From a virus, in IMG/VR virus record IMGVR_UViG_3300044856_000216, positions 64,001-128,000 of that record: DNA of 64,000 bases. One strand, written 5' to 3'. This document shows, in pieces, positions 1,823 to 61,195 of this stretch (its first letter is position 1; each line of letters starts with the position of its first letter). Under the pieces are notes generated by a model. It was not told where the DNA came from, searched no databases, and saw only the letters and a list, made by a program, of their open reading frames with translations. The position numbers and the translations under genes were made by a program.

Positions 1823-3211
1823 TTAATACTCTATCCAACCATCTGTAATACCAGTCATCCAATAAATAAGATCTTCTCTATCATTTTTTAATCTTCCATC
1901 TATTACACGAGTTAAGATTTCATTGAGCCAGTAGCCAACTTCTTTTCCACTTTTAATAAGCATTGTATCCATTACATCTTTTCCATTAACTGCTAAATCC
2001 TTTAGAGAAAAACATTCATCATCTTGTAAGACTTCTTCTAAAATATATTCAATTTTATCAATCTTTTGCAATCTAGTTTCCTGATTCATGTCTGCTTGTG
2101 CTTTAATGTCAGCTCTGCGAACATTTAGTAATCTTCTGAACTGTTCTTCTCCGATTTTATTAAGCCATCTCTTGATATATTTCTTTCCCACCTCAAAAGT
2201 AGCATCATGATAATAAACTAATTCAACGACCTTTTCTCTTGTATCATTGTCAAAACGAAGTCTTTTCATAATTGTATCAGTTATATCAGCACTGACTTTT
2301 CCATGCCCTTTAAAATGTCTAATACCATCTTCGCCATCTTGATAACAATGTGGCTTTCCAATATCATGAAAAAATACAGCCAATGACGTAATCAAATCTC
2401 TTGGATTCAAGTCGGGTTCACAATCACATTCATAAGCTTGTACTGCATGTACTGTATGATTCCATACATCATAGATGTGATATGGATTATTCTGTGGAAA
2501 ATCAAACATATCTTTTATTTCAGGGATAAATAACGAGAATACTTCACGGAATAATCCTATCTGTATATAAAACTCACTTGATAATGCAATTTTACAGAAC
2601 TCACTGTTAATTCTCTCAATAGATATATTCTCTAAATTCTTATACATTTTATGAATATTCAAACTTACATCAGAATCAACCACAAATCCCAGTTGTGAAG
2701 CAAATCGAATAGCACGTAAAATCCTTAAAGCATCTTCTGAAAATCTATCCTCTGCTTTACCAACACATCTGATTTTATAATGCTCAATATCTTCCATGCC
2801 ATTAAACGGATCTACAAAACCAACTTCATCATTGTATGCCATCGCATTGATTGTAAAATCTCTACGCTTTAAATCTTCTTTAAGATTTCGTGTAAATGTT
2901 ACACTATCAGGTCTACGGCTATCTGAGTAATTACCGTCAATTCTGTAAGTGGTACATTCATATCCCTCACCGTCAATTACAATGGTAATAGTTCCATGCT
3001 GCAATCCAGTTTCAATAATCCTCTTGTCCTTGAATACTTCCATCATTTCATCTGGTGTAGCAGATGTTGTAATATCATAGTCATGGATTGGTCTGCCAAG
3101 AATACTATCTCTCACTGCACCACCACATAAAAATGCCTCATATCCATTACTATGCAGAATATGGATAATTTCATTTGCACCAGATGGAATTTCAATTTTC
3201 AATCTTTTCAT
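1823..3211 (-). CDS. cca: CCA-adding enzyme / tRNA nucleotidyltransferase with HD domain
   Basis: GGAVRDSILGRPIHDYDITT head motif, RDFTINAMA, EDALRILRAIRFASQLGF, downstream FFHDIGKP HD motif; 462 aa. Confidence 0.9.
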   Translation of the reverse strand: MKRLKIEIPSGANEIIHILHSNGYEAFLCGGAVRDSILGRPIHDYDITTSATPDEMMEVFKDKRIIETGLQHGTITIVIDGEGYECTTYRIDGNYSDSRRPDSVTFTRNLKEDLKRRDFTINAMAYNDEVGFVDPFNGMEDIEHYKIRCVGKAEDRFSEDALRILRAIRFASQLGFVVDSDVSLNIHKMYKNLENISIERINSEFCKIALSSEFYIQIGLFREVFSLFIPEIKDMFDFPQNNPYHIYDVWNHTVHAVQAYECDCEPDLNPRDLITSLAVFFHDIGKPHCYQDGEDGIRHFKGHGKVSADITDTIMKRLRFDNDTREKVVELVYYHDATFEVGKKYIKRWLNKIGEEQFRRLLNVRRADIKAQADMNQETRLQKIDKIEYILEEVLQDDECFSLKDLAVNGKDVMDTMLIKSGKEVGYWLNEILTRVIDGRLKNDREDLIYWMTGITDGWIEY

Positions 3212-4154
3212 CCAAATTCACCTCAATTTTCGGTTCGTCAATAAACTTTGCCAATAGTCCTTCATGGTAGAATACCTTGTCACTTTCAGTAATTTCTTCT
3301 CCTAAAAAATATCTAAGTACGAATGGCATCATATAATTATCCAAACACTTAAATTCAATATTATATTCTTCATTTTCTTTATAGATTTTCTTACAGTATC
3401 CGTCAGTACCATTGATTTTGTGGAGTGAAAATAATTCTACTCTGAATGGAATATTAGATTTTATACTTAATCTTTCTTCAACACAATTTCTCACAAGACT
3501 TAACATGCGCAAATTACTTGCCGTTGTCATATCGTAAACAATCTCATCATTTGAAAAGAATACAATTCTCTCTTCACCAATGATGTCATATAATAACGAT
3601 AATGTCTGATCCATAAGGTACTTTTCATATGTGATGTGTCTTTTGGGATTGCAATTACCCAAAATTACCTGACGAATATATTTACTATTTATAATATGTT
3701 CATTATCTGTGAATTGAGAAATAAAATCTTCCCATGTATCAGTCCCACGAAATATATTCCTATCATATTCGTGTAAAGATGAAAAATTAGCCTTTCTCAT
3801 ATCAATACTGATAAAAACTCTTCCAGTATTAGTTGGCTTAAATATATCTTTATTAGGTAAATCTTTATGAGTCGTAGTAAATTTATTCATATCTTCCGCA
3901 TTAAATCTCTGATATGCTTCTGAATTTTTGATGCTTGTAATAGCTGCATCCTTTACACGATTATATTCCTCAAAGTAATCCTGTTCACAATTGTATTGCT
4001 GTAATTCACTTGCAAATCTAATCCATTTATTAACTGTTCCATAAAAATTATCAAAGAGTTTAATTCTGTCTGAAAAATATGGTTCTTGGAACAATCTAAT
4101 TGGTATATTGCAATCCTTACAGAATCTTTCTTTTGCTCTATTTGATATTTCCAT
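3192..4154 (-). CDS. hypothetical protein (unknown function, between two nucleotidyltransferases)
   Basis: 320-aa ORF overlapping cca start by 20 nt and sharing a boundary nt with the upstream gene. Confidence 0.6.
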   Translation of the reverse strand: MEISNRAKERFCKDCNIPIRLFQEPYFSDRIKLFDNFYGTVNKWIRFASELQQYNCEQDYFEEYNRVKDAAITSIKNSEAYQRFNAEDMNKFTTTHKDLPNKDIFKPTNTGRVFISIDMRKANFSSLHEYDRNIFRGTDTWEDFISQFTDNEHIINSKYIRQVILGNCNPKRHITYEKYLMDQTLSLLYDIIGEERIVFFSNDEIVYDMTTASNLRMLSLVRNCVEERLSIKSNIPFRVELFSLHKINGTDGYCKKIYKENEEYNIEFKCLDNYMMPFVLRYFLGEEITESDKVFYHEGLLAKFIDEPKIEVNLDEKIEN

Positions 4155-5197
4155 CAGATATCTCCTTTCACAATTCTCTCATTTACATACATCTTAAATT
4201 CATTGATTTTCTTATGATCTGGTTTATCAGGTAAAGATGTATTTGCTTTTGCATATTCAAAACGTTTTTCATATTCATTCAATAAATCATAGAATTCAGA
4301 AATAGGCTGTCTATTCTCGTCTAAATATTCTCCGTTTCTAATACTCATAAGCAAATCGTATTCATCTGATCTATAAGTGATAATCTCTTCCTTTTCCAGA
4401 ATATCAATACACATCATATATAATCGAATCAAATGAGCCATATGTTTTCCTAATTTATCATGGGCTACAGCCTTTTCATTTCTTTTACCAAATTTGCTGT
4501 AACTACTAACAATGGACTTCATTTCGTTCCACATGCCAGCCCAATCTCTTAACGGATAATGTTGCAAGTTTACATCCATAAAAATCTCACTATCATATCC
4601 TTCTTGAACAGCCTTATCAATATATAGTTTCACATCACTATTTTCATGAGGGTAATATCTGTTTTTAAATTCATATCTTGCATTGTTGATGCTTTTTAAA
4701 ATGTTAGCTTCATTTTCTGCCTGACCAACCAATCTTGCAGCCTTGTTCTCCATACGTCTGAGCTGAGAACCCGCATATCCTCCAAAGGTGTGAACACAAA
4801 TCTGCGAAAGAAACATTTTTCTATTATCCAATAATTCTTTACCAATTTTAGATAAATGTAAATAATGTTCAGGCAAGCAGCCAAGTTGTTCAATTGTATT
4901 AGGATTACTTGATGCTAAAAGCTGTATCATTTTATTAAACGAATACATAGTTGTATCTGTATCAACATCTACGACCTGTTCAAAGTCTGTTCCAAGTAAA
5001 ATATCTGATTTGCTGTTGAGTGCAATACCTCTCACATCTAAATCAGATCCTTCTTTATCCATTCCATATGCATGACTTCCACCAAGAGTTAAGATAATGA
5101 TATTGTTACCCAAATTCTTATCTGTTCTCAGAAAGTCATACTCTTTTGATTTTAATTTGTCCTTAATCTGTTCAATTGTCATTGTCTTAACCTCCAA
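4154..5197 (-). CDS. Pol-beta-superfamily nucleotidyltransferase (GS-x-YG...SD-x-D type)
   Basis: LGGSHAYGMDKEGSDLDVRGI motif. The likely true start is ATG 5182, after a GGAGG. Confidence 0.7.
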   Translation of the reverse strand: MEVKTMTIEQIKDKLKSKEYDFLRTDKNLGNNIIILTLGGSHAYGMDKEGSDLDVRGIALNSKSDILLGTDFEQVVDVDTDTTMYSFNKMIQLLASSNPNTIEQLGCLPEHYLHLSKIGKELLDNRKMFLSQICVHTFGGYAGSQLRRMENKAARLVGQAENEANILKSINNARYEFKNRYYPHENSDVKLYIDKAVQEGYDSEIFMDVNLQHYPLRDWAGMWNEMKSIVSSYSKFGKRNEKAVAHDKLGKHMAHLIRLYMMCIDILEKEEIITYRSDEYDLLMSIRNGEYLDENRQPISEFYDLLNEYEKRFEYAKANTSLPDKPDHKKINEFKMYVNERIVKGDI

Positions 5198-10875: not shown

Positions 10876-12297
10876 TTATGCGTTTGCCATCTTATCAAAA
10901 CTTCTCTTCATGAAGTCATAATTTACTTTCTGAGATGGACTAAACTTTTTTGTATTCTTATATTTATTAATCCATTCCTCAAACTTGTCCTCATTTTCAT
11001 TCTCACAAGCATATGCCATTAATGCGATTAAAGCTGTTTGGCATTGCTGATATATTGGAGCATTGACTTCAATTCCATTATGATCAAGGCAATAATCAAC
11101 AAGGTCAGAGTAAGTATCAATGTCCTCATCTGTCGCTTCTGGATTTGCGTTTTCCTGTACAAATGAGAGTGTTGATTCATTGGAGTTTTCGCCCTCTAAA
11201 ACTCTTGATTTTATTTGGTTTTTAAGGTCAAACATTTCCAACATAAGCGAAATATATGTATTTATCTTGTTTTGTATCAATTTTTTATCAGATGTACCAG
11301 GTTCTTTGTCAAGTATGTCATAGCTCCATCCATCAACCACTTTGTCATGTAAATTATTTACCAATTCATCTAAAAACTCGACAAATTTGCTATCTTCTAA
11401 TCCCAACTTAATGAATCTATGGAACACGGCAAACCAAACTGGGATATCTTTGAATACAAACAAGTTTTGGAATTTCTCTCCACAAACCTTTGCAATTCGA
11501 TTTCCGTATATATTAATTGTGTTAAATTCTTCATCAGAAGAGCTATTTTCGATAAATTCATTTCTGTCTTTCGGATTCTTTTTCCAATCATCCATATGAA
11601 ATACAGTCATTACAGAATTTGCAACTGTCTGCTCGTAAGTTCCATTCTTCCTCTTTGCACTTGAATATGTAACACAATTTTTGTAAAACTCATTGTTTGC
11701 AATGTTTTTAATTTTTCTTGCATATGTAGGAATCCATGTAAGAGCTTTCTGGTTTGAACCCATGCTCTTATTGCGGTTATACCTTCTTACTAACTTACTG
11801 ATTTCCATCATATTGCAGTTCTGATGAATAACAATTCTGATCTGATAATCATCAAATTTCTTTTTTAATTCATCAGGTAACTGCTCGTAAGTTTTATTCT
11901 TTATGTCAAACTCACAATTGTCCCAAAGAATGCTTCCGTTCTCATCTTTAATAAGATGTCCCTTTTCATCTCTTCGCTTCTTCTGATACTGAATAACGCT
12001 ATTCTCAAAAGATTTAGTTGTTTTCCAGTTCATATGCCTGAATTTATTCAGAGCTGTTGTTCTCTGAATACCATCAACTATATACTGCTGAGTTAAATTA
12101 TCTCCAAGCTCTTCCTCTCCAAGAATTATAGGAGGAATATAATCTTCATTAAGCACCGTATAGATTAGCTCATTTATTGCTCCATTATCCCAACAGAACA
12201 TTCTCTGAACGTCCTGATTTTCTGAAATATCTTCACTATTTACACTCTTTAAATATGAAGATAATGCTATTGCTTGTTCTCTTACCTTTTTTGCCAT
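10876..12297 (-). CDS. DUF262 (GmrSD N-terminal-type, ParB-like) domain protein
   Basis: VQRMFCWDN...IPPIILGEE...YIVDGIQRTTAL matches the DUF262 QR / DGQQR signature; no His-Me C-terminal domain recognised. Confidence 0.85.
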   Translation of the reverse strand: MAKKVREQAIALSSYLKSVNSEDISENQDVQRMFCWDNGAINELIYTVLNEDYIPPIILGEEELGDNLTQQYIVDGIQRTTALNKFRHMNWKTTKSFENSVIQYQKKRRDEKGHLIKDENGSILWDNCEFDIKNKTYEQLPDELKKKFDDYQIRIVIHQNCNMMEISKLVRRYNRNKSMGSNQKALTWIPTYARKIKNIANNEFYKNCVTYSSAKRKNGTYEQTVANSVMTVFHMDDWKKNPKDRNEFIENSSSDEEFNTINIYGNRIAKVCGEKFQNLFVFKDIPVWFAVFHRFIKLGLEDSKFVEFLDELVNNLHDKVVDGWSYDILDKEPGTSDKKLIQNKINTYISLMLEMFDLKNQIKSRVLEGENSNESTLSFVQENANPEATDEDIDTYSDLVDYCLDHNGIEVNAPIYQQCQTALIALMAYACENENEDKFEEWINKYKNTKKFSPSQKVNYDFMKRSFDKMANA

Positions 12298-12326: not shown

Positions 12327-12911
12327 TTAGTATCTCTGGGTTAAGACTCTTGTGTTTTCATAAGACTGTATTGCTTGTATATTATTTGAATACTCTTTTG
12401 CACTCATATGTAAATATTCTCTGATTTCCATTGGTTTATATCCTTCAGAAAGCAACGCAACAATTTTCCTTTGTGTATGTGATAACTGATTTAAATATCT
12501 CTGTATTCTTGTACCGCCCATCATACTTTGTGCTGCTATTTCAAAAGTATCAAAATCAGAAGGTATCATCTCACTGATTTCCATTCCATCTTCACCTATT
12601 AAAGCATTCATACTTTCAATATTTTTCTGAGGGATTTTTTTTAATCTGTTTCTGTCTCGTATTTCAGTTTTGAACTTGCGTTTAATGTTACTTGCTAAGA
12701 AACAATCAAAATTACATTTATTGTTCTCATCATACCTAAATACTGAATCGGTTAAAACTCCAAGTGCAATTGAATAGAAATCATCAATATCCATTCCATA
12801 TAAACCACCGATTTTATTTAGCATTGGATTACACATTTTTTTAAGCTTTGCCATTTCGTTATTACAATACTTTTCGAGTATTTCTTTTTGTTGAATTTCC
12901 ATTTTTACCAC
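12327..12911 (-). CDS. sigma-70-family RNA polymerase sigma factor
   Basis: Region-2-like FYSIALGVLTDSVFRYD...FLASNIKRKFKTEIRDRNR and a region-4 HTH (LSHTQRKIVALLSEGYKPMEIREYLHMS). The likely start is ATG 12902. Confidence 0.7.
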   Translation of the reverse strand: MVKMEIQQKEILEKYCNNEMAKLKKMCNPMLNKIGGLYGMDIDDFYSIALGVLTDSVFRYDENNKCNFDCFLASNIKRKFKTEIRDRNRLKKIPQKNIESMNALIGEDGMEISEMIPSDFDTFEIAAQSMMGGTRIQRYLNQLSHTQRKIVALLSEGYKPMEIREYLHMSAKEYSNNIQAIQSYENTRVLTQRY

Positions 12912-12933
12912 TCTCCTTATGTTTGATATATAA

Positions 12934-13554
12934 TTATTCTCCGTTTTCTATCTCAACTATTCGGTATCTATATTTACGACTAAATAATCCATTTATCGCT
13001 TTTTGTGTTCTTTCTTTGCTGACTTTAGTGGTATCTACCTCAGCTATTACATTATGTATAATGACCATCTCATCCTTAAGATTTCGTCTATTTTTTCGAT
13101 TGGTACGAATTCTCTTATAGAATATCCAACCTCTGTAAAGATCAACTGGCTTTTCCAACTCTACCTCATGCAAAATATCTATCAATTCTTCGTCAGCTCG
13201 CTTCAACTCAATTTCAAGTTCTTTATATCTTTTTGCTGCATCATTAAGAATTCGCTCACATTCACCAAATTTATCAATCCAAGACCTAACAGATTCAGAG
13301 ACTTCATATCCATCATTACCTTTGATTGATGTTTTCGTTGCTTCAACAATTCTCTCAACTGGTGTCTGTATCTTAATATCAGGAATACATTCCAACTTAA
13401 AATGCAAACGTCTCATGGATTTTGGTAGATGCTCCAAGATATTTTCTGCCTTTTGTTTTGGAAATGTATCTCTAATTTTCCTTGAACAAGCGACTGGTTG
13501 TCCATTATTGAGCCTTATGTATACACCATTGTTGTTTACAATTGCGTATTCCAA
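12934..13554 (-). CDS. hypothetical protein
   Basis: 206-aa ORF. Confidence 0.6.
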   Translation of the reverse strand: MEYAIVNNNGVYIRLNNGQPVACSRKIRDTFPKQKAENILEHLPKSMRRLHFKLECIPDIKIQTPVERIVEATKTSIKGNDGYEVSESVRSWIDKFGECERILNDAAKRYKELEIELKRADEELIDILHEVELEKPVDLYRGWIFYKRIRTNRKNRRNLKDEMVIIHNVIAEVDTTKVSKERTQKAINGLFSRKYRYRIVEIENGE

Positions 13555-13586
13555 TTTCTATCACCCTTTCTTCTTATTTATAATAA

Positions 13587-13643
13587 GAGGCATCAAGGAG
13601 TTGAACCTTACATGATTTGGCTTTCCTGCAAAGCTGATGCCTC
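13587..13643 (-). ncRNA. truncated tRNA-like element (acceptor stem + one hairpin + T arm, 57 nt)
   Basis: GAGGCAU/AUGCCUC 7-bp stem, GCUUU-GCAGG-AAAGC hairpin, UAAGG-UUCAACU-CCUUG T arm. Confidence 0.45.
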
Positions 13644-13773
13644 ATCCGTTAGTGGATTAAACTATGGTAGAACTATAGCAGCTACACATTCTGCTCTTAC
13701 AAGGCAATATGTATGTACAAAGAAACAAGTGCCTTGCGTTATGCACTTACATCGGGTGTGATTCAGTGCATAG

Positions 13774-13845
13774 CAGGGCTAGTTGGATTCGAACCAACGA
13801 ATGCGAGAATCAAAATCTCGTGCCTTACCGCTTGGCGATAGCCCT
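13774..13845 (-). tRNA. tRNA-Gln (UUG)
   Basis: Hand-folded cloverleaf: acceptor AGGGCUA/UAGCCCU; anticodon arm CGAGA-UUUUGAU-UCUCG; T arm GUUGG-UUCGAAU-CCAAC. No encoded CCA. Confidence 0.85.
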
Positions 13846-14113
13846 ATAATTTATTAAATTAAAATTAAATAACGTGAAAATGTGCTGAATTGCCTGAATT
13901 TAATTGACAGAATGCCAATTTATATGTATTATAACTATGAGCGTATTCCAGTACGCTCATGAACAACAATTCAATAAACAATGTTATTAGAGGAAGTCGA
14001 GCGAGTGTTCCAGCACTATGATGCTCGACTTTCTCTTTTTGTATCTCACATTTAATATAATAGAACGTTCGTTCGGCTTTGTCAATACTTTTATCGAACA
14101 TTCATTCTGTTTT

Positions 14114-14392
14114 TTATATGATATCACGTTGCGAGTCCCAAATTCTGCCCTCGCAACTACAAAATTTAATATTGTGTATCATTTCTGTATGAGACAAGCT
14201 AATTCGATTGAACACATTATTAGATAACCAATCAATCTCATCATCAGCTTTATTAATTATTCTCTTTCCTTCATCGGGTGTAATCTGTTTTGGCTTTGTA
14301 TGAATAAACGTAATTCCATTAAAGGAATCCAACCAGATTTTACCAGGAGCTTCGTCTATTAGTTGTTTTGCTTCTTCTTTGCTTATATACAT
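14114..14392 (-). CDS. hypothetical protein (overlaps the MazF-like gene end by 10 nt)
   Basis: 92-aa ORF. Confidence 0.55.
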   Translation of the reverse strand: MYISKEEAKQLIDEAPGKIWLDSFNGITFIHTKPKQITPDEGKRIINKADDEIDWLSNNVFNRISLSHTEMIHNIKFCSCEGRIWDSQRDII

Positions 14393-14772
14393 GTCGTTCC
14401 CTCCTCTAATCTATATCCAGTTCCAAAGAACAAACCATTAAAACACGTCTGGTCAATCATTCTTCTATCTTCCTTACATATGATTGTACCAAGTTTTTCC
14501 ATTACCTCCGTTTTAGAGATAGTTATTATCTGCTCGCCCATTACCATTGAATAAAGCTGCAATCCATTTTCTCCATTGGCTTCAAGACATCCATGCACTG
14601 GCATATTTGTCTTTTTAATTTTACTTGTCAAAGGCATCACTGTAATTATCGTAGCATGTTTTGTCCCAATTGGGTTTGATACGATCACATATGGACGTTC
14701 TTTAGTCTGGACTGATCCTTCGCCTTGATATTTGATTTTCGCTTTTATAACATCATATCTCTGTAAATCCAT
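14383..14772 (-). CDS. MazF/PemK-family toxin-like endoribonuclease
   Basis: ERPYVIVSN...VMPLTSKIKKTNMPVH...MGEQIITISK pattern. Confidence 0.8.
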   Translation of the reverse strand: MDLQRYDVIKAKIKYQGEGSVQTKERPYVIVSNPIGTKHATIITVMPLTSKIKKTNMPVHGCLEANGENGLQLYSMVMGEQIITISKTEVMEKLGTIICKEDRRMIDQTCFNGLFFGTGYRLEEGTTCI

Positions 14773-14934
14773 ATGTACGTTCCTCCTCTCTTTTGTATTT
14801 ATGTACCTTGGATTACCTTTGATATTTCATACTATACGCCCTTAACAATATAATGTCAATAGTTATTCTTAAGATTATATTTATTTTTTTAACAATATAT
14901 GCTAAAGTATATATTATCAAGGAGGTAATATATA

Positions 14935-15143
14935 TGAAACTTAATATAAAACCATTAGTTGACGCAAAAGGACTAAATAGAAATCAGCTTTCAAAAGAAC
15001 TAAAAATAGGATATCAAGCAACATGTAATTTGTATGATGGTAATGCACAACGCATATACTTTGATACATTGCAAAGATTATGTGACGTTCTCGAATGTAC
15101 TCCTAATGATATTTTAATATCTGAACACGACACTAAAAATTAG
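14935..15143 (+). CDS. XRE-family HTH regulator
   Basis: MKLNIKPLVDAKGLNRNQLSKELKIGYQATCNLYDG...; AAGGAGG before ATG 14935 (the track ORF starts earlier, at 14853). Confidence 0.75.
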
Positions 15144-15156
15144 TGTCGTATACATA

Positions 15157-15357
15157 TCACACAAATTTAACTAGATCAAATGGTTGCACTTTCATAGCTT
15201 TGGCAACCAAATCTAATACAGCCAAATCAGGAACAGCACTTCCATTTTCCCACTTACTAATTGTACTTGGTGCAATGTCAGCCATTTTCGCAAGTCCTCT
15301 TACTGTTATTCTCTTTTCAATTCTGATTTTCTTTCCGATATATTTAACCATAATCAC
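15157..15357 (-). CDS. XRE-family HTH regulator
   Basis: ITVRGLAKMADIAPSTISKWENGSAVPDL. Confidence 0.75.
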   Translation of the reverse strand: MIMVKYIGKKIRIEKRITVRGLAKMADIAPSTISKWENGSAVPDLAVLDLVAKAMKVQPFDLVKFV

Positions 15358-16343
15358 ATCTCCATCAATTTCTCTTTCATTCCAACAGCTCCATTGGCAT
15401 AATTATTAACTGTTGTATTTACACTACTATGTCCAAGCTGCTGCTGAACAAATGCAAGATTTCCATTTCTGTTCATTATACTAGCATAATAATGTCGCAT
15501 CATATGTGGAGTAATACCATTTCCATAATTCTCAAATATCTGTTTGATATTTCTCTCTGTTGTACGTGTACCGTTTTTATTTACAAACACAGCTTCCGTA
15601 TCTACAATATTGTCTAAGGTACTTCTGTATTCTAACCATTCTCTTATAGCTTTTAAAGCAGATCCACTAAGATATACCGTTCTATTTTGCATTTCTCTAT
15701 ACACGCCCTTACCAAGAATAGTAATATATGGCATTTCTTCGTCCAAATGTAAATCAGATAAATCCAAACCAGCAAGTTCAGATTCTCTTATTCCAGTTCC
15801 TCTTAACACACGAAAGATAGCAATATTCCTATTTCTTACTGGAATATCCTTTTTCCACATTATTTTCTGTTCCATATCATTAAGCTGTTTTTCTGTTGGG
15901 AGTTTTTTAGTTAAGTTGTTCCCAGATGGAATTCCTTTATATGTTACATCTTTAAAGAATTTATCTTTAATTTCAGTTCCTTTTACTCTGCTCATATAAT
16001 CCCAAAAGCTACTTATTATATGTTTCCTAGTTTCTAATGTTGTAGGTGACATTCCATTCTGCTCTTTTGTCTTTAAATATAACGTGATATCTTCTGCCAT
16101 AATGTCAGTAAAATCCGATGGCTCAATATCTGAAATATTTGTTTTATCAATAAGTTTCTCTTTAATAAACCAATTGAGTAAATCTACAATAACCCCAAGA
16201 TAATTCAATGCGCCTGCTTTACTCTCTATCTTTACAGTAAAATATTTTCTCATATATATAGGAAGATTTAACTCATCCAACTTTCTATTAAGCTTTTCAG
16301 CATTTTTATTTTGTATTTTTATTTTGTAACACATAATTATCAC
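15354..16343 (-). CDS. tyrosine recombinase / phage integrase
   Basis: RGTGIRESEL...HMMRHYYAS...LGHSSVNTTVNNY catalytic signature. Confidence 0.9.
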   Translation of the reverse strand: MIIMCYKIKIQNKNAEKLNRKLDELNLPIYMRKYFTVKIESKAGALNYLGVIVDLLNWFIKEKLIDKTNISDIEPSDFTDIMAEDITLYLKTKEQNGMSPTTLETRKHIISSFWDYMSRVKGTEIKDKFFKDVTYKGIPSGNNLTKKLPTEKQLNDMEQKIMWKKDIPVRNRNIAIFRVLRGTGIRESELAGLDLSDLHLDEEMPYITILGKGVYREMQNRTVYLSGSALKAIREWLEYRSTLDNIVDTEAVFVNKNGTRTTERNIKQIFENYGNGITPHMMRHYYASIMNRNGNLAFVQQQLGHSSVNTTVNNYANGAVGMKEKLMEM

Positions 16344-23867: not shown

Positions 23868-25725
23868 ATCGAGTAGGAGGGAAATTTAACGAAATTTCCC
23901 GACCTCTCACACCACCGTGCGTACCGTTCGGTACACGGCGGTTCAATCAACTTAACAAGTAACGCACCTTTCGGTGTAGTAATCTAACATTGAGACTAAT
24001 CCAAATGAGGTTAGTCTCTTTGTACTTATAGCCTTTTGTATCCATCCATTGTGGGCGAGTCTTGCATATCTGTCTCCGCAATACGCTATTTTAAATGCTG
24101 CCCATCTTGGTACATCAAGTTTCATAAGGTTCTTTGCTCTGTTTTGTGGAGTTTTCCAATGTTTCCAAATGCACATACGAAGTCTGTATCTGATGCTACC
24201 ATCTAGTTCTCGACAAAGTGTTTTCATACTTCCAATTTTAAAGTAATTTATCCAACCTCTGATGAGTTGATTTAATTTCTCCACCTTGTAGCTGTTGCTA
24301 ACGCCCCAGCTACGGCATGTGAGTTCTTTCATTCTTTTCTTAAACTTCGCTACTGATTTTGCATGTGGTTTTGCCTTAAACTGATGTGCTCTTGTGTCAA
24401 AGTAGAACCCAAACCCAAGGTATTTAAGTCCGCTTGGTCTGTCTACTTTACTCTTTGTCATGTTGACCTTGAGACCTAGTTTCTCCTCAATAAATCGAGA
24501 TATGTTTCTCATTACCCGATTTGCAGACATTTCACTTCCAACCATGATAATACAGTCATCTGCATATCGCACAAAGTTAAGCCCTCGCTTTTCCATTTCC
24601 TTATCAAGTTCATTGAGCATGATGTTTGCCAATAACGGCGAAAGATTTCCTCCTTGCGGTGTTCCCACAATAGAATCCTCATATTCATCGTCTATCATGA
24701 TTCCGCTGACAAGGTATTTCCTTATGATAGAGATAACATCTCCATCTTTTATAGTTCTGCCTATGATAGTCATAAGCTTGTCATGGTTTACCGTGTCAAA
24801 GAACTTTTCCAAGTCAATGTCTACAATCCAATCGTTACCATCATTCATCATGTCAAGTGCTGTTAGGATTGCTTGCTGTGCACATCTATTCGGTCTGAAT
24901 CCATAACTATGTTCATGGAATTGTTCCTCGTAGATTGGTGTTAATACCTGTGCAATGGCTTGCTGTATGAATCTGTCTGTTACTGTTGGTACTCCTAGGT
25001 TTCTGACACCGCCATCGGGCTTTGGTATCTCCACTCTTCGTACTGGTTGAGGTTTATACTTTCTTGTCCCCAACTGTTCCTTGATGATTTCGCCGTTCTT
25101 TTCAAGATGTTCTTTGAGTTCCGTGTACTTCATTCCGTCCACTCCCTCTGCACCTTTATTTCGTACGACTTGCAGATATGCTCTGTTGAGATTATCGCTA
25201 GATAAAATCTGCTCCATTAGACTACTTGTGTCCATGCGTTCTTTCCTTTCCGTCTCGCTTGATTTGACCATCTTTTACCCGATTGGTTACGGCAGATGTT
25301 GCCATTTCTGCAATACGAGACATACTCAAACTTATTGATTGTTCGCCCCTTCGCTCCATTTCCATTACAGAAACTTCTTCACTACTATGGGCTCGGCTGA
25401 CTTCTCACAGTTCGTTGTTACTAGGCTAATAGAACCTCTGTGAGACCTCCACGCTTAAGGTGCACGCTCTTTCTCTCCATACATCCGCCACATTTACTCT
25501 GCTACTACAAAAAGTGATAATTATTAGACTTCGTTGCTTTTAGCCAACTTATCTCTCATAGCCTAGCCTTATATGTGATTTCTATCCGTCGGACCAGAGA
25601 TTTGCTTACAGCTTCCTTCAGATTCCATCTCACGATGAACACCCTTGCTGTTCAGCTATACACTTCCCACTATCTGGGCGTGTTCGGGACTTTCACCCGT
25701 TAGAGCGCGCCCATGGCGCGCAAAC
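23868..25725 (-). mobile_element. group II intron, class C (IIC)-like, 1858 nt
   Basis: 5' end GUUUGCGCGCCAUGGGCGCGC...GGGUGAAAGUCCCGAAC. Domain V GAACCGCCGUGUACCGAACGGUACGCACGGUGGU at 23911-23944. Domain VI has a bulged A (23874) 7 nt from the 3' end ...CCUACUCGAU. RT/maturase ORF inside; sits 7 nt after a terminator stem. Confidence 0.85.
23952..25271 (-). CDS. group II intron reverse transcriptase/maturase (no endonuclease domain)
   Basis: RT motifs incl. PQGGNLSPLLANI and VRYADDCIIM (YADD), plus a C-terminal maturase X region; 439 aa. Confidence 0.9.
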   Translation of the reverse strand: MVKSSETERKERMDTSSLMEQILSSDNLNRAYLQVVRNKGAEGVDGMKYTELKEHLEKNGEIIKEQLGTRKYKPQPVRRVEIPKPDGGVRNLGVPTVTDRFIQQAIAQVLTPIYEEQFHEHSYGFRPNRCAQQAILTALDMMNDGNDWIVDIDLEKFFDTVNHDKLMTIIGRTIKDGDVISIIRKYLVSGIMIDDEYEDSIVGTPQGGNLSPLLANIMLNELDKEMEKRGLNFVRYADDCIIMVGSEMSANRVMRNISRFIEEKLGLKVNMTKSKVDRPSGLKYLGFGFYFDTRAHQFKAKPHAKSVAKFKKRMKELTCRSWGVSNSYKVEKLNQLIRGWINYFKIGSMKTLCRELDGSIRYRLRMCIWKHWKTPQNRAKNLMKLDVPRWAAFKIAYCGDRYARLAHNGWIQKAISTKRLTSFGLVSMLDYYTERCVTC

Positions 25726-45110: not shown

Positions 45111-45164
45111 TAGGCAGGCAGGGAATCGAACCCTGCTCACCTAGCACTTGCGTACTACTACCTA
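45111..45164 (-). ncRNA. truncated tRNA-like element (acceptor stem + GCAA-capped hairpin + T arm, 54 nt)
   Basis: UAGGUAG/CUGCCUA stem, AGUAC-GCAA-GUGCU hairpin, CAGGG-UUCGAUU-CCCUG T arm; starts 3 nt after the stop of 45167..46003. Confidence 0.45.
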
Positions 45165-45166
45165 GA

Positions 45167-46003
45167 TTATTTTGCAGCCTTTTTGTCCTCAGACTTTACT
45201 TCAGGCTTGATAACCTCATGGTATTTCTCATTCGCAAGGACAACCGAACACAAGTCGGTAATACTTGCTACTTGCTGAGCTTTAGTCAGATTAAGGTTGT
45301 AGTTATACGGCTCATAATTCACCGTTTTATTACCTAAATCATCCTTGCCAGTCTTAATCTTTCTACTAGCGTTACCGCCAAAAGAAGCGACAAAATGATG
45401 TAATAACCACTCATCAATAAATGAACGCTTGCAAGTAACTGGATAGAAATACTTACAATCCTCATTGTTAAAAATCTCAACAATCAACGGACGGAGATAC
45501 TCTTTGAATTGTTTAAGCCCTGAACCTTTTGTGTAAAATGTTTTGATAGCATCAGCAATTTTCTTTGCTCTTTCATCTGAAAGAAAATCAGAATTAAAAG
45601 CTATAATATCAATAGATTTATAAATCTGGTGCGCTAATAAATTGATGTGAATACGGTCTGTCAGTGGTAAAGCGGTCACTGTATCAAGTGACATGCAAGC
45701 CTCTACTTCCTTGCGGAGATCTACGACATTGTCCCGCTTAGAGATAAAGTCCCCTGCATCTACTCCGAGCTTCTCAACGACAACCCCAACCTCAGCGGTC
45801 AAAGCATCTACACCGACAGCTACGCTCTCAAACTTTTCGCGTAAGTCTTTAAAAGCCTTCTCAGCCTTTGCAAGCTCAGCATGACGAACGACAGTTTTTA
45901 CTGCATCCATAACCAAAAAGTTGTTCTTTTTGCAAGCATCGAGATTGATTGCATCGCTTGTGATTGTAAATAATTCAGATTTTAACATAAATAGTCCTTC
46001 CAT
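45167..46003 (-). CDS. hypothetical protein
   Basis: 278 aa; probable start at ATG 45988 after GGAAGGA. Confidence 0.65.
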   Translation of the reverse strand: MEGLFMLKSELFTITSDAINLDACKKNNFLVMDAVKTVVRHAELAKAEKAFKDLREKFESVAVGVDALTAEVGVVVEKLGVDAGDFISKRDNVVDLRKEVEACMSLDTVTALPLTDRIHINLLAHQIYKSIDIIAFNSDFLSDERAKKIADAIKTFYTKGSGLKQFKEYLRPLIVEIFNNEDCKYFYPVTCKRSFIDEWLLHHFVASFGGNASRKIKTGKDDLGNKTVNYEPYNYNLNLTKAQQVASITDLCSVVLANEKYHEVIKPEVKSEDKKAAK

Positions 46004-46078
46004 CCTAGTTTTAACGTGGGGACATCCACGAAAATTTAATAGTTTTCAATGATTTTTTGCTGGAATAATTCCAGCGAC

Positions 46079-46144
46079 TGCGCTATAATGGAATTGAACC
46101 ACTACAAAAGATTTTATAAAAATCCAATGGTGCCAACTAGCGCA
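46079..46144 (-). ncRNA. irregular tRNA-like gene with reduced D region and UAU anticodon loop (possible tRNA-Ile-like or pseudo-tRNA)
   Basis: Acceptor UGCGCUA/UAGCGCA; anticodon arm GGAUU-UUUAUAA-AAUCU; T arm AGUGG-UUCAAUU-CCAUU. Only 12 nt where the D arm should be. Confidence 0.35.
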
Positions 46145-46529
46145 CTATTCACCGACTAAGGTTACTTATATTTTTTTAAACCGATTGAAGTAAAACAAGT
46201 TTTCGGAGCTTTTAAAACTTGAGTTTTTCGCACTAGCTCATACGGATATAAGCTATTTTGTAAACCAGTATAAAACCAAAACCTAACAACTAAATGTTTT
46301 TTACTGGCTTGTATGTAAAATCTATACGAATACAGATTATAGAAAAGTTGTGCTATGTATTGGTACTTGCTAACGGATATATGCTATATATACATTAGCT
46401 TGCACCCCGTCAAATATGTTTAGGTAAAATTAGTTCATGCCCCTGAACTTGCTAACTACATCTCATGCAATAGCTGTCTGCAATGTTATTATATAGGTTT
46501 ACCAAGGTTTACACCTACAATTCTATTAG

Positions 46530-46545
46530 TACCATTCTACCATTC
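46530..46545. repeat. tandem 8-mer TACCATTC x2
   Basis: Read directly, in the non-coding region. Confidence 0.8.
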
Positions 46546-46900
46546 TACGGTGGTACTAAGACAGTTAAGTTCGCTGTCGTGGCTTTAGTCTATATAACCG
46601 TTTTGACATACGTTTTAAATACGTCTATTCCGTCATCTGCTGTGCGGTGCTTTGCTCGTGTGGTCTATGACCTTTTTATTATAGCTAAGCAAATAGCTAT
46701 CTTGCTATCATGTAGCAAGTGGTACTTTATTAACTTGTCAATCACTACTGAATGAAGTAGTAATTAGGTTTCCGACACCCTTAACGTATGGACTTATAAA
46801 AGGGGTTTTGCCCCTTGCCCTTTCGGACAAGTCAATAATAATACAAATTTTGGGATTTTGCAATACATTTTTTAGGATTTTTATTATTTTGTTAAAATTG

Positions 46901-46922
46901 TATAGTTTTGGTATAGTTTTGG
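46901..46922. repeat. tandem 11-mer TATAGTTTTGG x2
   Basis: Read directly; flanks the DnaA-box cluster. Confidence 0.85.
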
Positions 46923-46930
46923 TGTGTGTT

Positions 46931-46949
46931 ATTGTGAATTATTCACAAT
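46931..46949. promoter_or_regulatory. 19-bp palindrome ATTGTGAAT-T-ATTCACAAT (operator-like)
   Basis: Read directly. Confidence 0.7.
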
Positions 46950-46950
46950 T

Positions 46951-47011
46951 TGTTGATAACTATGTGGATAAGTTTTAGTTGATTGTTGATAACTTATAAA
47001 AATGTGGATAA
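46951..47011 (+). promoter_or_regulatory. cluster of four co-oriented DnaA-box-like 9-mers (candidate replication origin)
   Basis: TGTGGATAA at 46963-46971 and 47003-47011 (perfect). TGTTGATAA at 46951-46959 and 46984-46992 (1 mismatch). Located at the divergent strand switch. Confidence 0.6.
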
Positions 47012-47200
47012 CTAACGATAACGAAACTATACCAGATAATAATATCAATATTATCTAACATAGTTTTTAAAACTATATATAATGGTTTTATAGTTCTAAA
47101 AAAATGACTAATATATATCTATTAACCATTCTTTTTTGCCTAACCGGGGGTAGTTAAAACTAACTAATAAGGTTGGAAATGCAGCAAGCCCTATAGCTGA

Positions 47201-47520
47201 TTCATCTACACACCAACTCAAAAATCCATCCTTTCCAATCCTCAAAATCCCCAACAAAATCAAGCAAAATCCCAATCCCCCTCCCTCAAACCACTTATCG
47301 CACCTCATATCGTCAAATCCCACTAAAATCAAGCATTTTCCCAGCTTCACAACTCAAAAATCAAACCCTCATCCCACCAAAAATCCACCCACAATTCCAA
47401 AATCTTCCTTATTTATAGGCACTTTTACCGATAACGTTTTTTCACCTCAAAATCGCCCAAATCATCTCTCACCACACTCCCTATACAGGGGGTACTCAAA
47501 AACTACACACAAAATCACTC
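47201..47520 (+). repeat. G-depleted tract with about 12 degenerate CAAAATC repeats
   Basis: I count 5 G in 47201-47400; the motif recurs every 10-40 nt. Confidence 0.75.
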
Positions 47521-47581
47521 CAATAAGAGAATAACTATATAACCAATACAAAAAATAATTATTCAACTTAAAGGAGAAAAC

Positions 47582-50114: not shown

Positions 50115-51119
50115 ATAATTGGGGTATATTCTATAACAAATTTGAAAACTAAAAAATTATATATTGGAGAAAGTCTTGATATTGATAAAAGATGGATTAA
50201 TCATAAAAATGATCTTTTAAATAACCAACACGCTAATTATTATCTTCAACAAGATTTTAATAAGTTTGGGAAGGCATTTTTTAAATTTGAAGTTCTGCAA
50301 GAAGTTGAAAGAGATAGTATCACTATTACTCAATCCAAATTATTGATGTTAGAAAATGCTTATATAGAAAAATATAAAAATGAAGATTATGAATTATATA
50401 ACATAGAAAATACACTAGAAGATGTTCTTTCAAATAAAAGGAAATTATTGGTTTGCGAAGAAATTGCAAATTATGTTGTAGTGTCTCAATTTTTAAAAAA
50501 TAAATATGTATATGATTATACAAATAAAAGATTTAATTATTGTCAAAGAGATACAATTGAAAATTTAATATTATCTAATTCTTCCATCAAAGGGAAAGAA
50601 AAAGCAAAGCAAGTTGCAAACATAATATTAAAAGAGTTAATTGATCAGAATCTATATGAAAACTTTATAATAGAAAACACTTACTCTATTTATCTATATC
50701 ATAAAATTCAAGAACGTAAAATTATAGAAATTAATTCTAAAGGTCGAGAATATATATTAAGTCATTATGACTTTAATTCGTTTTTATTAAGAAAAAGAAC
50801 TTCTGAAGCCAAATTTTATATACAACAATATCCCTCTGAAAAGAAAATTAAACCAGAAGATCAAAATAGAATACAAGATGTTTGGCATAAACTTAAAGAT
50901 AAATGCATTCTACCACCAGAAAATAAATACAATGATTTTCGAGATATGCTTATAAAATTAAATTTAATTATTATTGATAATAATAAGAGAACACGAGCAA
51001 CTGAATTTGCAATGAAAAATAAATATTTTTTAGTTGTTAAATATAATAAAGCTAAAGATATTTATCAATATGTTATATCTCAAGATGGTTTAAGGTATAT
51101 TTTAGCAAATATAAAATAA
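50115..51119 (+). CDS. GIY-YIG homing-endonuclease-like protein
   Basis: GVYSITNLKTKKLYIGESLDIDKRWINHKNDL...NKFG closely parallels I-TevI-type N-termini. The GIY motif lies upstream of the first canonical start (TTG 50142), so the start is placed at ATA/ATT 50112-50118. Confidence 0.8.
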   Translation: MIGVYSITNLKTKKLYIGESLDIDKRWINHKNDLLNNQHANYYLQQDFNKFGKAFFKFEVLQEVERDSITITQSKLLMLENAYIEKYKNEDYELYNIENTLEDVLSNKRKLLVCEEIANYVVVSQFLKNKYVYDYTNKRFNYCQRDTIENLILSNSSIKGKEKAKQVANIILKELIDQNLYENFIIENTYSIYLYHKIQERKIIEINSKGREYILSHYDFNSFLLRKRTSEAKFYIQQYPSEKKIKPEDQNRIQDVWHKLKDKCILPPENKYNDFRDMLIKLNLIIIDNNKRTRATEFAMKNKYFLVVKYNKAKDIYQYVISQDGLRYILANIK

Positions 51120-59514: not shown

Positions 59515-59550
59515 CTACTATCCTACTTTGTAGGAAATAAATTAAAGGAT

Positions 59551-59755: not shown

Positions 59756-61195
59756 ATCGCAAAGAAAAAACATGAAGTAAAAGTAGAAATTATTGGAGGT
59801 AACGCTGAAGGTGTTACTGGTAGTTGTACTCGAATAAAAACTTCTGAACATTGCTATCTTTTTGAGTGTGGAATGATTCAAGGCAATCATACTGTGCTTG
59901 AAAATTATAGAGCCAATATGAAATATATTCAAAAAGTAAGACCACAAGAAGTCGAATTTATTATTGTTGGACATCTTCACGCAGATCATATAGCCATGAT
60001 TCCAACATTATATGCTCGTGGAAAATGTAATGCAAAAATAATTGTACCTAAAGGTTCAACTTCGATTCTAAAAGAAATGTGGCTTGATTCTTCATATATT
60101 AATTGTAGAGATATTGAAGTCATAAATCTTAAAAATGAAAGAAATTATGAGCCGTTTTATACTGAAGATATTGTATATAAAGCACTCGAATTTGTTCAAG
60201 AGATTGATTCTGATAAGATAGTAAATTTATCTGATGAACTTGCTATTAGATATACTGACGCAGGGCATGTTCTTCTATCTAAGCAATGTGAAGTATATAT
60301 AAACGGAGGTTCACATACTAGAAAAATTCTGTTTTCAAGTGATCTCGGTAATATTGCCACACAAGATACAAGAGTTTTTGTTGAAGATTTTAAACCTGTG
60401 TCATCGGCTAATATTGCAATAATGGAATGTACTTATTGCAGCAAGGAAAGACAATGTACTAAAGAAACATATAAAAAAGATATAGAAAAAATCAAATCTG
60501 TTATAGAACAATATTGTGTTGACAATAATGCAAGAGTTCTTATTCCGTCATTTTCACTTGACAGAACTCCATATATCTTATGGATTTTATATTCCTTATT
60601 TGGAAAAGATGCAAATTTCAAAGTACCAATTTTAATTGATAGTCCATTAGCAAATAGATTGTTAGACTGTTACTCTTCTATTCTTGAAGGTGATAAAAAA
60701 GAATTATTCGATGAAATGATGTCATGGAAGAATGTTCAAAGAATTATTCAACCAGAAAACAGTAAGGCAGCTATTGCAGACAAAGGTGCAAAAATCATTC
60801 TTAGTAGTTCAGGAATGTTGACAGCAGGGAGGTCAATTAAGTGGACTCAGAGTATTTTACCAAGAGAATCTGATTGTATCTTATTTATGGGATATTCTGG
60901 TGAAGATACATTAGCATGGAAAATAAAACATGGTAAAGATAACAAAACAATTAATATTAATGGCAAACCTTTTAAGAATAAGGCGCAGATTTACGATTTG
61001 AAGTCATTTTCTAGTCATATGCAGCGACAGGATATGATTAATTATTACAAATCTATAAATTGTGAAAAAATTTATTTAGTTCATGGTGATTCAAATAAAA
61101 TTGAGTTTAAACATGATTTAGAAGATGCAATATCTGATTGTCTTAAAACTACAAAAGTTATTGCTGTTAATAGCGGTACAAAAATCTCATTATAG
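59756..61195 (+). CDS. MBL-fold beta-CASP nuclease (RNase J / CPSF73-like), apparent ATC start
   Basis: GHLHADHIA (HxHxDH), SSGMLTAGRS, SFSSHM, LVHGD. The in-frame upstream KVEIIGGNAEGVTGSCTRIKTSEHCYLFECG is the conserved first strand/motif 1 and precedes the first ATG (59873). Confidence 0.8.
   Translation: MAKKKHEVKVEIIGGNAEGVTGSCTRIKTSEHCYLFECGMIQGNHTVLENYRANMKYIQKVRPQEVEFIIVGHLHADHIAMIPTLYARGKCNAKIIVPKGSTSILKEMWLDSSYINCRDIEVINLKNERNYEPFYTEDIVYKALEFVQEIDSDKIVNLSDELAIRYTDAGHVLLSKQCEVYINGGSHTRKILFSSDLGNIATQDTRVFVEDFKPVSSANIAIMECTYCSKERQCTKETYKKDIEKIKSVIEQYCVDNNARVLIPSFSLDRTPYILWILYSLFGKDANFKVPILIDSPLANRLLDCYSSILEGDKKELFDEMMSWKNVQRIIQPENSKAAIADKGAKIILSSSGMLTAGRSIKWTQSILPRESDCILFMGYSGEDTLAWKIKHGKDNKTININGKPFKNKAQIYDLKSFSSHMQRQDMINYYKSINCEKIYLVHGDSNKIEFKHDLEDAISDCLKTTKVIAVNSGTKISL

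Follow-up and report, generated by a model that had tools for sequence, protein, structure and literature searches.

A conserved tRNA-like element without an anticodon arm at a gene border of a large gut phage, a possible transcript processing signal

Introduction

Plant mitochondria contain t-elements, tRNA-like structures found by the same GGTTCRANYCC screen as was used here, whose borders coincide with the 5' and 3' ends of mRNAs (Forner et al. 2007, PMC1920247). Real tRNAs that are used likewise lie next to them, some t-elements overlap the end of a reading frame, for example at nad6/ccmC, and they were proposed, and in part shown, to direct cuts by the ribonucleases (RNases) P and Z, with excised elements able to gain non-templated C or CCA (PMC1920247). 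t-elements also occur in wheat and at the Brassica orf138 locus. Here, a 57-nucleotide (nt) element, E1, is described on the minus strand of a 64,000-nt stretch of viral DNA (positions 64,001 to 128,000 of IMG/VR record IMGVR_UViG_3300044856_000216, hereafter the window), together with two companion elements, E2 and E3. With high confidence, E1 is one of three non-decoding tRNA-shaped elements at gene borders in the window, and by analogy its best reading is tRNA punctuation by non-decoding tRNA shapes, with the same logic as that of the plant mitochondrial t-elements.

In animal mitochondria, tRNAs located between genes serve as processing signals, and very reduced tRNAs are fit for RNase P, RNase Z and CCA addition. 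The part of a tRNA that is read by RNase P, RNase Z and CCA-adding enzymes consists of the acceptor stem, the loop GG and the T arm, and these enzymes accept acceptor/T-arm minihelices. The mascRNA and menRNA are ~60-nt tRNA-like RNAs with reduced arms; they form the terminal part of a longer transcript, from which RNase P and RNase Z excise them, and then receive a CCA tail. Among phages, the C4 antisense RNA precursor of P1/P7, the M3 RNA of phi80 and the stable RNAs in the T4 tRNA cluster contain acceptor/T-stem-like helices and are processed by host RNase P; we know of no canonical T loop with a GG elbow, no gene-punctuation placement and no interchange with tRNAs for these RNAs. Work on phage tRNA genes almost always treats them as aids to decoding or as a counter to anticodon nucleases, and a full-text literature search with partial journal coverage returned no description of t-elements, tRNA punctuation or tRNA-like processing signals in phages.

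Like E1, E2 and E3, plant t-elements are tRNA-like but not cloverleaves, carry GGTTCRANYCC and an acceptor stem, and adjoin protein genes within longer transcripts. The elements of the window combine a non-canonical fold with this motif and an acceptor-like stem (the fold is not the energy optimum of E1, but is that of E2), and all three are located on the sense strand, flank a protein gene and lie within a longer predicted transcript. In contrast to t-elements, they belong to a tailed phage of gut Firmicutes-type bacteria, not to an organelle, and are known here from sequence alone; E1 is smaller, has no anticodon arm, and is linked by synteny to the particular tRNA gene from which it descends; the place of an element can be taken by a self-cleaving ribozyme candidate; and the phage has its own CCA-adding enzyme and RNase. 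Armless mitochondrial tRNAs keep the anticodon arm, decode, and lose the D and/or T arm, which is the opposite of E1. Hammerhead ribozymes, found beside single prophage genes and suggested to divide long transcripts into mRNAs of one gene's length (Perreault et al. 2011, PMC3088659), are likewise small modules bracketing phage genes, and relatives of the window have a hammerhead-like element at the E2 site. Hammerheads self-cleave, whereas the tRNA-like elements would need tRNA-processing enzymes, and the two are unrelated in sequence and structure.

Anatomy of E1

Read 13643->13587 on the minus strand, E1 is GAGGCAU-CA-GCUUU[GCAGG]AAAGC-CAAAUCAUG-UAAGG[UUCAACU]CCUUG-AUGCCUC, letter for letter the sequence given in a preliminary description of the window. 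The perfect 7-base-pair (bp) acceptor-like stem and the T loop of UUCRANY type claimed there are read directly in the sequence (GAGGCAU/AUGCCUC, extendable to 9 bp, and UUCAACU), and the claimed placement, 130 nt downstream of tRNA-Gln and just upstream of a gene start, was measured as 129 nt 3' of tRNA-Gln (13773-13845) and 32 nt before the TTG start of the open reading frame (ORF) at 12934..13554. What has to be revised is the single hairpin, which had been taken to replace both the D and the anticodon arm; in the alignment with tRNA-Met given below it is the D arm with G18/G19, and only the anticodon stem is lost. The parts of E1 and the gene that follows are:

13587..13643, minus strand: E1, 57-nt tRNA-like element without an anticodon arm, seen from its sequence, T-arm motif statistics and 8 variants in relatives
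13637..13643, minus strand: 5' strand of the acceptor-like stem of E1, GAGGCAU, paired with 13587-13593
13620..13634, minus strand: D-arm analogue of E1, GCUUU-GCAGG-AAAGC, with G18 G19 in the loop, aligned to the D arm of tRNA-Met
13611..13619, minus strand: linker of E1, CAAAUCAUG, the former CAU anticodon loop, aligned to CUCAUAA of tRNA-Met
13594..13610, minus strand: T arm of E1, UAAGG-UUCAACU-CCUUG, carrying the GGTTCRANYCC motif and invariant across relatives
13587..13593, minus strand: 3' strand of the acceptor-like stem of E1, AUGCCUC, followed by U and a U/A-rich trailer without CCA
13555..13586, minus strand: 32-nt 5' untranslated region (UTR) with the ribosome-binding site of ORF206, 97-100% conserved
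12934..13554, minus strand: ORF206, 206 amino acids, TTG start, no known domain, always with an element of tRNA shape 5' of the gene

E1 has the canonical tRNA features of a 7-bp acceptor stem abutting a 5-bp T stem, a UUCRANY loop, and G18 G19, and in place of an anticodon arm (5-bp stem, 7-nt loop, U33) it has a 9-nt unpaired linker. Since the anticodon stem is lost, E1 is no longer able to decode. The start of the UTR at 13555..13586 is the predicted mRNA 5' end after 3' cleavage of E1. Neither ORF206 nor ORF278, the gene located between E3 and E2, had a match among Pfam, PHROGs, NCBIfam and PDB profiles. An upstream ORF of 10 codons, with its start at an AUG in the 3' strand of E1, was considered and rejected, because its ATG reads ATA in L089 (relatives are referred to by L numbers).

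Chance expectation and detector searches

The motif GGTTCRANYCC occurs 6 times in the window, compared with 0.11 +/- 0.31 in shuffles. The six sites are three tRNAs, E1, E2 and E3, all in gene sense, and E1, E2 and E3 are each closed by a perfect 7-bp stem in the correct register; E1 is real, beyond chance. A looser descriptor ([TG]TCRANN loop, 5-bp stem, 7-bp closure, G-U allowed) yields ~1.8 chance matches per window, and the significance therefore rests on the canonical T-arm motif with the closing stem; a relaxed version of this descriptor gave 19 matches by chance and was too noisy for use.

Standard detectors do not call E1. Two program checks of the kind proposed in the preliminary description were negative, as the Infernal tRNA model (RF00005) gave no match to E1 even at E<=10 (281-nt region), and ARAGORN did not call it at default, 80% or 60% thresholds. 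RF00005 had no match to the E1 of relatives at E<=0.1, Rfam at gathering thresholds did not call E1, and permissive E-values gave no match around it. A reading of E1 as a still-decoding tRNA was rejected, as there is no detector call and no anticodon arm. Around E2, permissive Rfam searches gave only weak mascRNA, SpF41 and tmRNA T-arm matches.

Origin of E1

The window (roughly 32% GC) comes from a large tailed phage. Its proteins share ~60% identity with those of Bacillus Bastille-type phages and of Clostridioides phage pCD1602_4, and its close relatives are 140-186-kb IMG/VR viral contigs and human-gut metagenome contigs. ORF206 homologues were gathered from IMG/VR, Logan/ENA assemblies, JGI metagenomes, GenBank phages and GTDB genomes. 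At ~50 gut-metagenome loci, a gene of tRNA shape is located 25-50 nt 5' of the ORF206 homologue, and its identity is variable:

ORF206 clade of 80-100% amino acid identity, window included: E1
ORF206 clade of 51-57% amino acid identity, and also MT835469 and contig L137 of a metagenome-assembled genome (MAG): tRNA-Met(CAU)
L108-L114: tRNA-Gln
L120/L121: tRNA-Leu(CAA)
L125/L131: tRNA-Lys
L124 (606-674): degenerate pseudo-tRNA-Met
L122 (about 600-670): 5'-truncated tRNA-Leu remnant

As tRNA identity varies at this site, it is shape and position that are kept, not the anticodon. The commonest order, present in several clades, is tRNA-Gln, spacer, tRNA-Met, ORF206, and the UTR 3' of tRNA-Met in distant relatives is homologous to the UTR 3' of E1. 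Alignment of E1 with tRNA-Met shows that the acceptor stem is retained, with three pairs changed on both sides, as are the D arm, with G18/G19 in register, and the T arm; the anticodon stem is absent, with the 9-nt linker opposite the CUCAUAA anticodon loop. From this synteny and alignment, E1 is judged with high confidence to descend from a tRNA-Met(CAU) gene, which is also what would be expected of a pseudogene.

Searches at the equivalent site of E1 found no ribozymes in 20 relatives, and a nucleotide search of GenBank phages with window positions 12500-15000 gave no match. In GTDB genomes, the locus was seen only on one MAG contig (binned as Treponema), with the usual tRNA-Met arrangement, a match that is uninformative as to the host. 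Two more independent tRNA degenerations 5' of ORF206 were observed: the pseudo-tRNA-Met of L124 has a shortened anticodon arm without CAU (Rfam 47.5 bits, rejected by ARAGORN), and the tRNA-Leu of L122 has lost its 5' half via a deletion between two CAAAAU repeats.

Sequence variation and selection

In the most diverged carriers of E1 (L071, L072, L089, L091), the ORF206 protein is 80-87% identical and 30-38% of the ORF206 4-fold sites differ, and E1 differs at 3-4 of 57 positions (5-7%; binomial P about 3e-6 to 2e-5 against the 4-fold sites). E1 and the UTR form the best-conserved block of the region in L071 and L072 (93-97% identical), compared with ORF206 (83-84%), the spacer (86%), tRNA-Gln (64-80%) and the upstream leader (61-63%). 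Across 8 distinct E1 haplotypes, 136/136 pair cells are paired: pair 4:54 is G-C, G.U or A-U among relatives, pair 5:53 is C-G or U-A, and pair 10:24 of the D-arm analogue changes from G-C to G.U in three relatives. The G.U pairs are meaningful on the minus-strand RNA only. Other substitutions are confined to the linker or the hairpin loop; the linker is the most variable part, with most of the substitutions and the sole indel (9 nt here, 8 nt in most relatives), and its relic CAU varies to CGU or UAU. The T arm and G18/G19 are invariant in all relatives. These patterns indicate with high confidence that E1 is under purifying selection. The preliminary description had argued for a functional class over random decay, and had named covariation in related phages as a check; both come out in its favour, with E1 conserved far above neutral expectation, two closing-stem pairs showing compensatory changes, and strong covariation in the companion elements.

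A non-functional, slowly decaying tRNA-Met pseudogene, looking conserved only through the close kinship of the sampled phages, would fit with the location of E1 at the tRNA-Met position of relatives, with the clear decay at the same site in L124 and L122, and with the presence of another tRNA-Met in the window (58533-58607). It is nevertheless very unlikely, as E1 differs at 5-7% against 30-38% of neighbouring neutral sites (P about 1e-5), divergence is far greater in the upstream leader, and even in tRNA-Gln, than in E1, the stem changes are compensatory, and none of the 8 haplotypes has a disrupted stem; neither a neutral rate nor stem-breaking changes, as expected of a pseudogene, were seen. 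An att-site remnant had also been offered as an option, with E1 as a DNA-level attP core or recombination target that copies a host tRNA 3' end. A Phage_integrase-family gene for a tyrosine recombinase lies 1.7 kb away (15354..16343), and the T-arm/acceptor end of tRNA genes is a frequent target of integrases. However, a core needs just the 3' part of a tRNA, whereas both strands of the closing stem are present in E1 and co-vary between phages, and its G.U pairs are valid on the gene-sense RNA strand only, arguments that extend to E2 and E3; the GTDB set holds no such locus as a prophage junction, its sole match being the MAG contig with the usual tRNA-Met arrangement. This option was rejected because of the co-varying closing-stem strands and the strand-specific G.U pairs, and we regard it as extremely improbable. 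Slow divergence, maintained pairing and minus-strand-only G.U pairs are together taken to exclude neutral decay as well as a DNA-level att site.

Companion elements E2 and E3

The preliminary description had placed a second element at 45111-45164, and E2 is present there; E3 was absent from that description. The two elements bracket ORF278:

45111..45164, minus strand: E2, 54 nt, with a 7-bp acceptor, GNRA hairpin, GGUGA linker and 6-bp T arm, seen from covariation
46079..46144, minus strand: E3, 66-nt tRNA-like element upstream of ORF278, with the T-arm motif
45167..45988, minus strand: ORF278, without a known domain, beginning with the conserved MLKSE and lying between E3 and E2
46059..46075, minus strand: hairpin GCUGGAAU-U-AUUCCAGC, which begins 3 nt past the discriminator base of E3 and covaries

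E2 is located 2-3 nt past the ORF278 stop codon (UAA in the window). ORF278 homologues are 35-39% identical over about 30 related contigs, and both flanking elements persist; ORF278 had no protein match in deposited phages. The E2 family comprises 14 distinct sequences, in which pairing is kept in 97.3% of pair cells and both sides have changed in 8 pairs (0/500 shuffles as high); the 6-bp T arm and the GG after the hairpin are invariant, and an additional compensatory change in the T stem is present in L077. Unlike in E1, the tRNA-like fold of E2 is the energy optimum. In E3, the acceptor is UGCGCUA/UAGCGCA, the hairpin GGAUU-UUUAUAA-AAUCU resembles an anticodon arm, and the T arm contains UUCAAUU. 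For the E3 family, RNAalifold independently gives the acceptor, a D-like hairpin with a CAGG loop, two more hairpins and the T arm, with 16 compensatory pairs among orthologues. Orthologues of E3 range from one-hairpin forms in intermediate relatives up to forms of 87 nt with three hairpins. At relaxed settings, ARAGORN reads 'anticodons' in them that do not agree with one another, so that they are not decoders.

The preliminary description had ascribed the same architecture to E1 and E2. This is right only as an approximation, since the T stem of E2 is 6 bp long and its hairpin follows the acceptor without a linker; it does not extend to one sequence family, as the E2 covariance model does not recover E1. 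Run over the whole window with filters off, this model found only E2 (71 bits) and weak matches to real tRNAs, and E1, E2 and E3 are therefore three separate sequence families. Common to all three families are a 7-bp covarying acceptor stem, the loop GG, the T arm, and a U-rich trailer without CCA; the interiors are very plastic (one to three hairpins), with the acceptor stem, the GG-bearing loop and the T arm persisting. Hairpins are located directly 3' of E3 and E2, and that of E3 covaries (GCUAGA/UCUAGC and CGGAUGG/CCAUCCG in relatives).

The best Rfam match of E2 is mascRNA/menRNA (MALAT1, NEAT1; RF01684), which is eukaryotic and nuclear and is regarded as a functional analogue; since the score of E2 is far below threshold (17.9 vs 42.5 bits, E 0.23), no homology is drawn, and E1 has no match to this model. 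A likeness to transfer-messenger RNA (tmRNA, RF00023) lies in an acceptor and T arm without an anticodon arm, and the T arm of E2 gives a local match, with only these 17 nt matching (8.7-15 vs 47 bits). A tmRNA reading was rejected, as pair 3:70 is G-C in E1 and E2 (no G3.U70), with no pseudoknots and no tag reading frame; ARAGORN found no tmRNA in the window.

As a side observation, a motif AAGUARCCU-N4-8-GGYGAA was found conserved 3-40 nt 5' of E3 in the otherwise diverged relatives L042, L046 and L077-L079, and at 46145-46175 (minus strand) in the window; it shows no enrichment in the rest of the window and may be a local promoter or part of a 5' leader structure. The conserved motif AAGTAACCT 5' of E3 was rejected as a general promoter, being not enriched elsewhere in the window.

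A hammerhead-like element at the E2 site

In L046, L055, L057 and L058, a hairpin and a hammerhead-like element replace E2 between the same two orthologous genes. The candidate, GCGUC/UUACGG-loop-CCGUAA-CUGAUGA-GC-AGAA-GC-GAAA-CGC (at 2333-2384 in L046), has a full catalytic core, a GUC cleavage site, and a stem II of just 2 bp, and matches Rfam Hammerhead_3 (RF00008) over model positions 1-54 (23.6 bits, E 0.004 in a 181-nt search). A candidate self-cleaving RNA at the E2 site is what a processing-site function would predict. No hammerheads were found in the window itself.

Proposed processing of the E1 transcript

Together with ORF206, E1 lies behind a promoter-like site, a tRNA and a structured spacer, and the phage encodes candidate enzymes of RNA processing:

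14057..14085, minus strand: sigma-70-type promoter-like site TTGACA-17-TATTAT, upstream of tRNA-Gln/E1/ORF206
13773..13845, minus strand: tRNA-Gln(UUG) without encoded CCA, called by ARAGORN and Rfam
13644..13772, minus strand: structured spacer RNA of 129 nt with three hairpins, between tRNA-Gln and E1 (RNAalifold)
1823..3211, minus strand: CCA tRNA nucleotidyltransferase (Pfam PolyA_pol 2e-37; NCBIfam NF009814, 314 bits, above the 290-bit cut-off)
4154-5197, minus strand: nucleotidyltransferase of the RlaP family (RNA-repair pathway)
59873..61195, plus strand: metallo-beta-lactamase/beta-CASP ribonuclease (Pfam Beta-Casp 2e-20, RMMBL; below NCBIfam equivalog cut-offs)

The promoter-like arrangement upstream of the tRNA cluster recurs in relatives, and no terminator-like site was found between 14057..14085 and ORF206; tRNA-Gln, spacer, E1 and ORF206 are therefore probably carried on one precursor. 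Transcription from the promoter at ~14085 would place the leader, tRNA-Gln, the 129-nt spacer, E1, ORF206 and downstream genes in this precursor. RNase P would then cut at the 5' end of E1 and release the spacer RNA, and RNase Z or the phage beta-CASP RNase would cut 3' of the E1 discriminator base, which would fix the 5' end of the ORF206 mRNA 32 nt before the start codon. The freed 57-mer would probably then receive CCA from the CCA-adding enzyme of the phage or of the host. E3 and E2 may act likewise on both sides of ORF278, and the hairpins directly 3' of them would become the 5'-terminal hairpins of the cleaved mRNAs.

We put the probability that E1 is such a signal for RNase P and RNase Z (or a phage RNase), and hence for tRNA punctuation of phage transcripts, at roughly one in two. 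Among the roles considered, the comparative evidence favours processing and CCA addition, because tRNAs of any identity are found at the E1 site, a hammerhead-like element is found at the E2 site, and the phage encodes a CCA-adding enzyme. E1 has lost its anticodon arm, yet is conserved more than the adjoining protein gene, and the presence of any tRNA or a ribozyme candidate at such sites points to a second, structural job of phage tRNA genes, that of marking transcript cut sites. If this is true, bacterial viruses would join the organelles and the few eukaryotic long non-coding RNAs in which tRNA punctuation and t-elements are known, some of the 'orphan' T-arm motifs and tRNA-like pseudogenes dropped by annotation pipelines would be explained, and compact, portable processing cassettes of 50-60 nt would be at hand for Firmicute-type hosts.

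Points against the processing reading and alternative folds

Several observations weigh against E1 as a processing signal. At -15.3 kcal/mol, the tRNA-like fold of E1 lies 5.5 kcal/mol above the predicted minimum, an extended hairpin of -20.8 kcal/mol in which the terminal stem is retained and made longer and GCUUUGCA is paired with UGUAAGGU. In every variant the extended hairpin has the lower energy (-18 to -23 kcal/mol, with the tRNA-like fold at -12 to -15), RNAalifold returns it as the consensus, and the sequence variation leaves both folds 100% paired with identical statistics, as both compensatory pairs sit in the terminal stem that the two folds have in common. Cleavage by RNase P or RNase Z, CCA addition and any effect on expression are entirely inferred. 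The constant tRNA 5' of ORF206 could simply reflect a gene at the end of a tRNA cluster. L122 has only a truncated tRNA-Leu remnant 5' of ORF206, and in L067, L073 and L137 a terminator-like hairpin lies between tRNA and ORF, so that a cleavable tRNA shape is not obligatory. For E2, the first two acceptor bases are the AG of the upstream UAG stop codon in most of the relatives L034-L063, and an RNase P cut would therefore leave a stop-less mRNA there, as at plant nad6/ccmC, yet awkward in bacteria; in L021/L033 a 4-nt deletion shortens the E2 acceptor stem. The hammerhead candidate, at 23.6 bits, is below the 48.5-bit gathering threshold.

The energies bear most directly on a reading of E1 as an ordinary cis-acting 5'-UTR structure, in which a 17-19-bp extended hairpin would serve as an mRNA stabiliser or as a translational or antitermination element and the T-arm motif would be a residue of the ancestral tRNA. 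All variation is compatible with this hairpin, and one change, G15A, replaces a G.U pair in it by A-U. It leaves unexplained, however, the invariance of 9 nt that it does not pair (UCAACUCCU, the T loop and part of the T stem), the loop placement of G18/G19, and the real tRNAs at this site elsewhere, and we consider it rather improbable. The tRNA-like fold of E1 is favoured on comparative sequence evidence, because the T loop and GG are invariant though unpaired in the rival fold, because the module of acceptor, 2 nt and CAGG-loop hairpin is a covarying helix in the E3 family, because relatives have real tRNAs at the E1 site, and because E2 and E3 are tRNA-like by energy and covariation.

In a further alternative, E1, E2 and E3 would be stable, CCA-tailed mini-tRNA-like RNAs acting in trans, as decoys or sponges for host factors that bind or attack tRNAs at the acceptor end or elbow (toxins that modify the acceptor end, for example), or as substrates or regulators of phage RNA-end enzymes, and cuts by RNase P and RNase Z would be only their biogenesis. 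Strong selection over the whole tRNA 'top half' and elbow is consistent with this, as are the phage-encoded CCA-adding enzyme, RlaP-type nucleotidyltransferase and beta-CASP RNase, and the compensated diversification of the tRNA-Gln anticodon stem, which suggests conflict with a host tRNA-targeting defence; stable excised t-element RNA is known in plants (PMC1920247). On the other hand, true tRNAs of four identities and, at the E2 site, a hammerhead candidate take the same positions, an interchange that would be unexpected of specific trans-acting RNAs, the interiors of the elements are extremely plastic, and, without an anticodon arm, a decoy role against anticodon nucleases is impossible. 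A trans-acting role is accordingly regarded as unlikely, though as slightly more probable than the cis-acting hairpin. The processing reading may also be extended to modular punctuation, in which ex-tRNAs, real tRNAs and hammerheads would be interchangeable in ~180-kb gut phages, and excised, CCA-tailed mini-tRNAs matured by phage enzymes would at the same time be decoys against defences that attack the acceptor end or elbow; in this full form it is improbable, and slightly more so than the cis-acting hairpin.

Transcript and genome context

In the conserved spacer at 13644-13772, every hairpin shows compensatory changes, the loops do not vary and a UGUAAG motif recurs, and the spacer core is also located between tRNA-Gln and tRNA-Met in the 51-57% clade; it has no Rfam match and is a candidate small RNA freed by tRNA processing at both ends. 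Phages that are near-identical in other respects (L001-L016, L071, L076) have a hypervariable anticodon stem in tRNA-Gln(UUG), with fully compensatory changes (CGAGA/UCUCG, CAGCA/UGCUG, AUCGG/CCGAU, CAUGG/CCAUG) and a constant loop and remainder, which looks like diversifying selection and perhaps escape from a host tRNA-targeting nuclease.

None of the three real tRNAs of the window has an encoded CCA. The tRNA-Met at 58533-58607 and tRNA-Lys are each followed within 10 nt by a near-identical hairpin (CCUAC-UUG-UAGG / CCUAC-UUUG-UAGG; 58608-58630 and 59516-59545, plus strand), which may be a shared 3'-processing or termination motif. The beta-CASP ribonuclease gene is located directly 3' of these two tRNAs, and a ClpP-like protease gene is next (61222-61860).

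Near E1, the minus strand encodes a GmrSD-N-like protein (10876-12297), a sigma-factor-like protein (12327-12911), a MazF/PemK-type toxin (14383-14772), and the tyrosine recombinase (15354-16343). A GIY-YIG nuclease gene is located at 50142-51119 (plus strand), and in L072 a GIY-YIG gene lies just 5' of the tRNA cluster. A group II intron at 23868-25639 (minus strand; Rfam D1-D4 and D5/6) contains a reverse-transcriptase/maturase ORF (23952..25271). At the strand switch, a 1.4-kb non-coding divergent region (46150-47580) has DnaA-box-like TTATCCACA (x2) and TTATCAACA (x2) at ~46950-47010 and many GATTTTGAG/GGGATTT repeats at 47240-47480, and by these sequence features looks like a replication origin.

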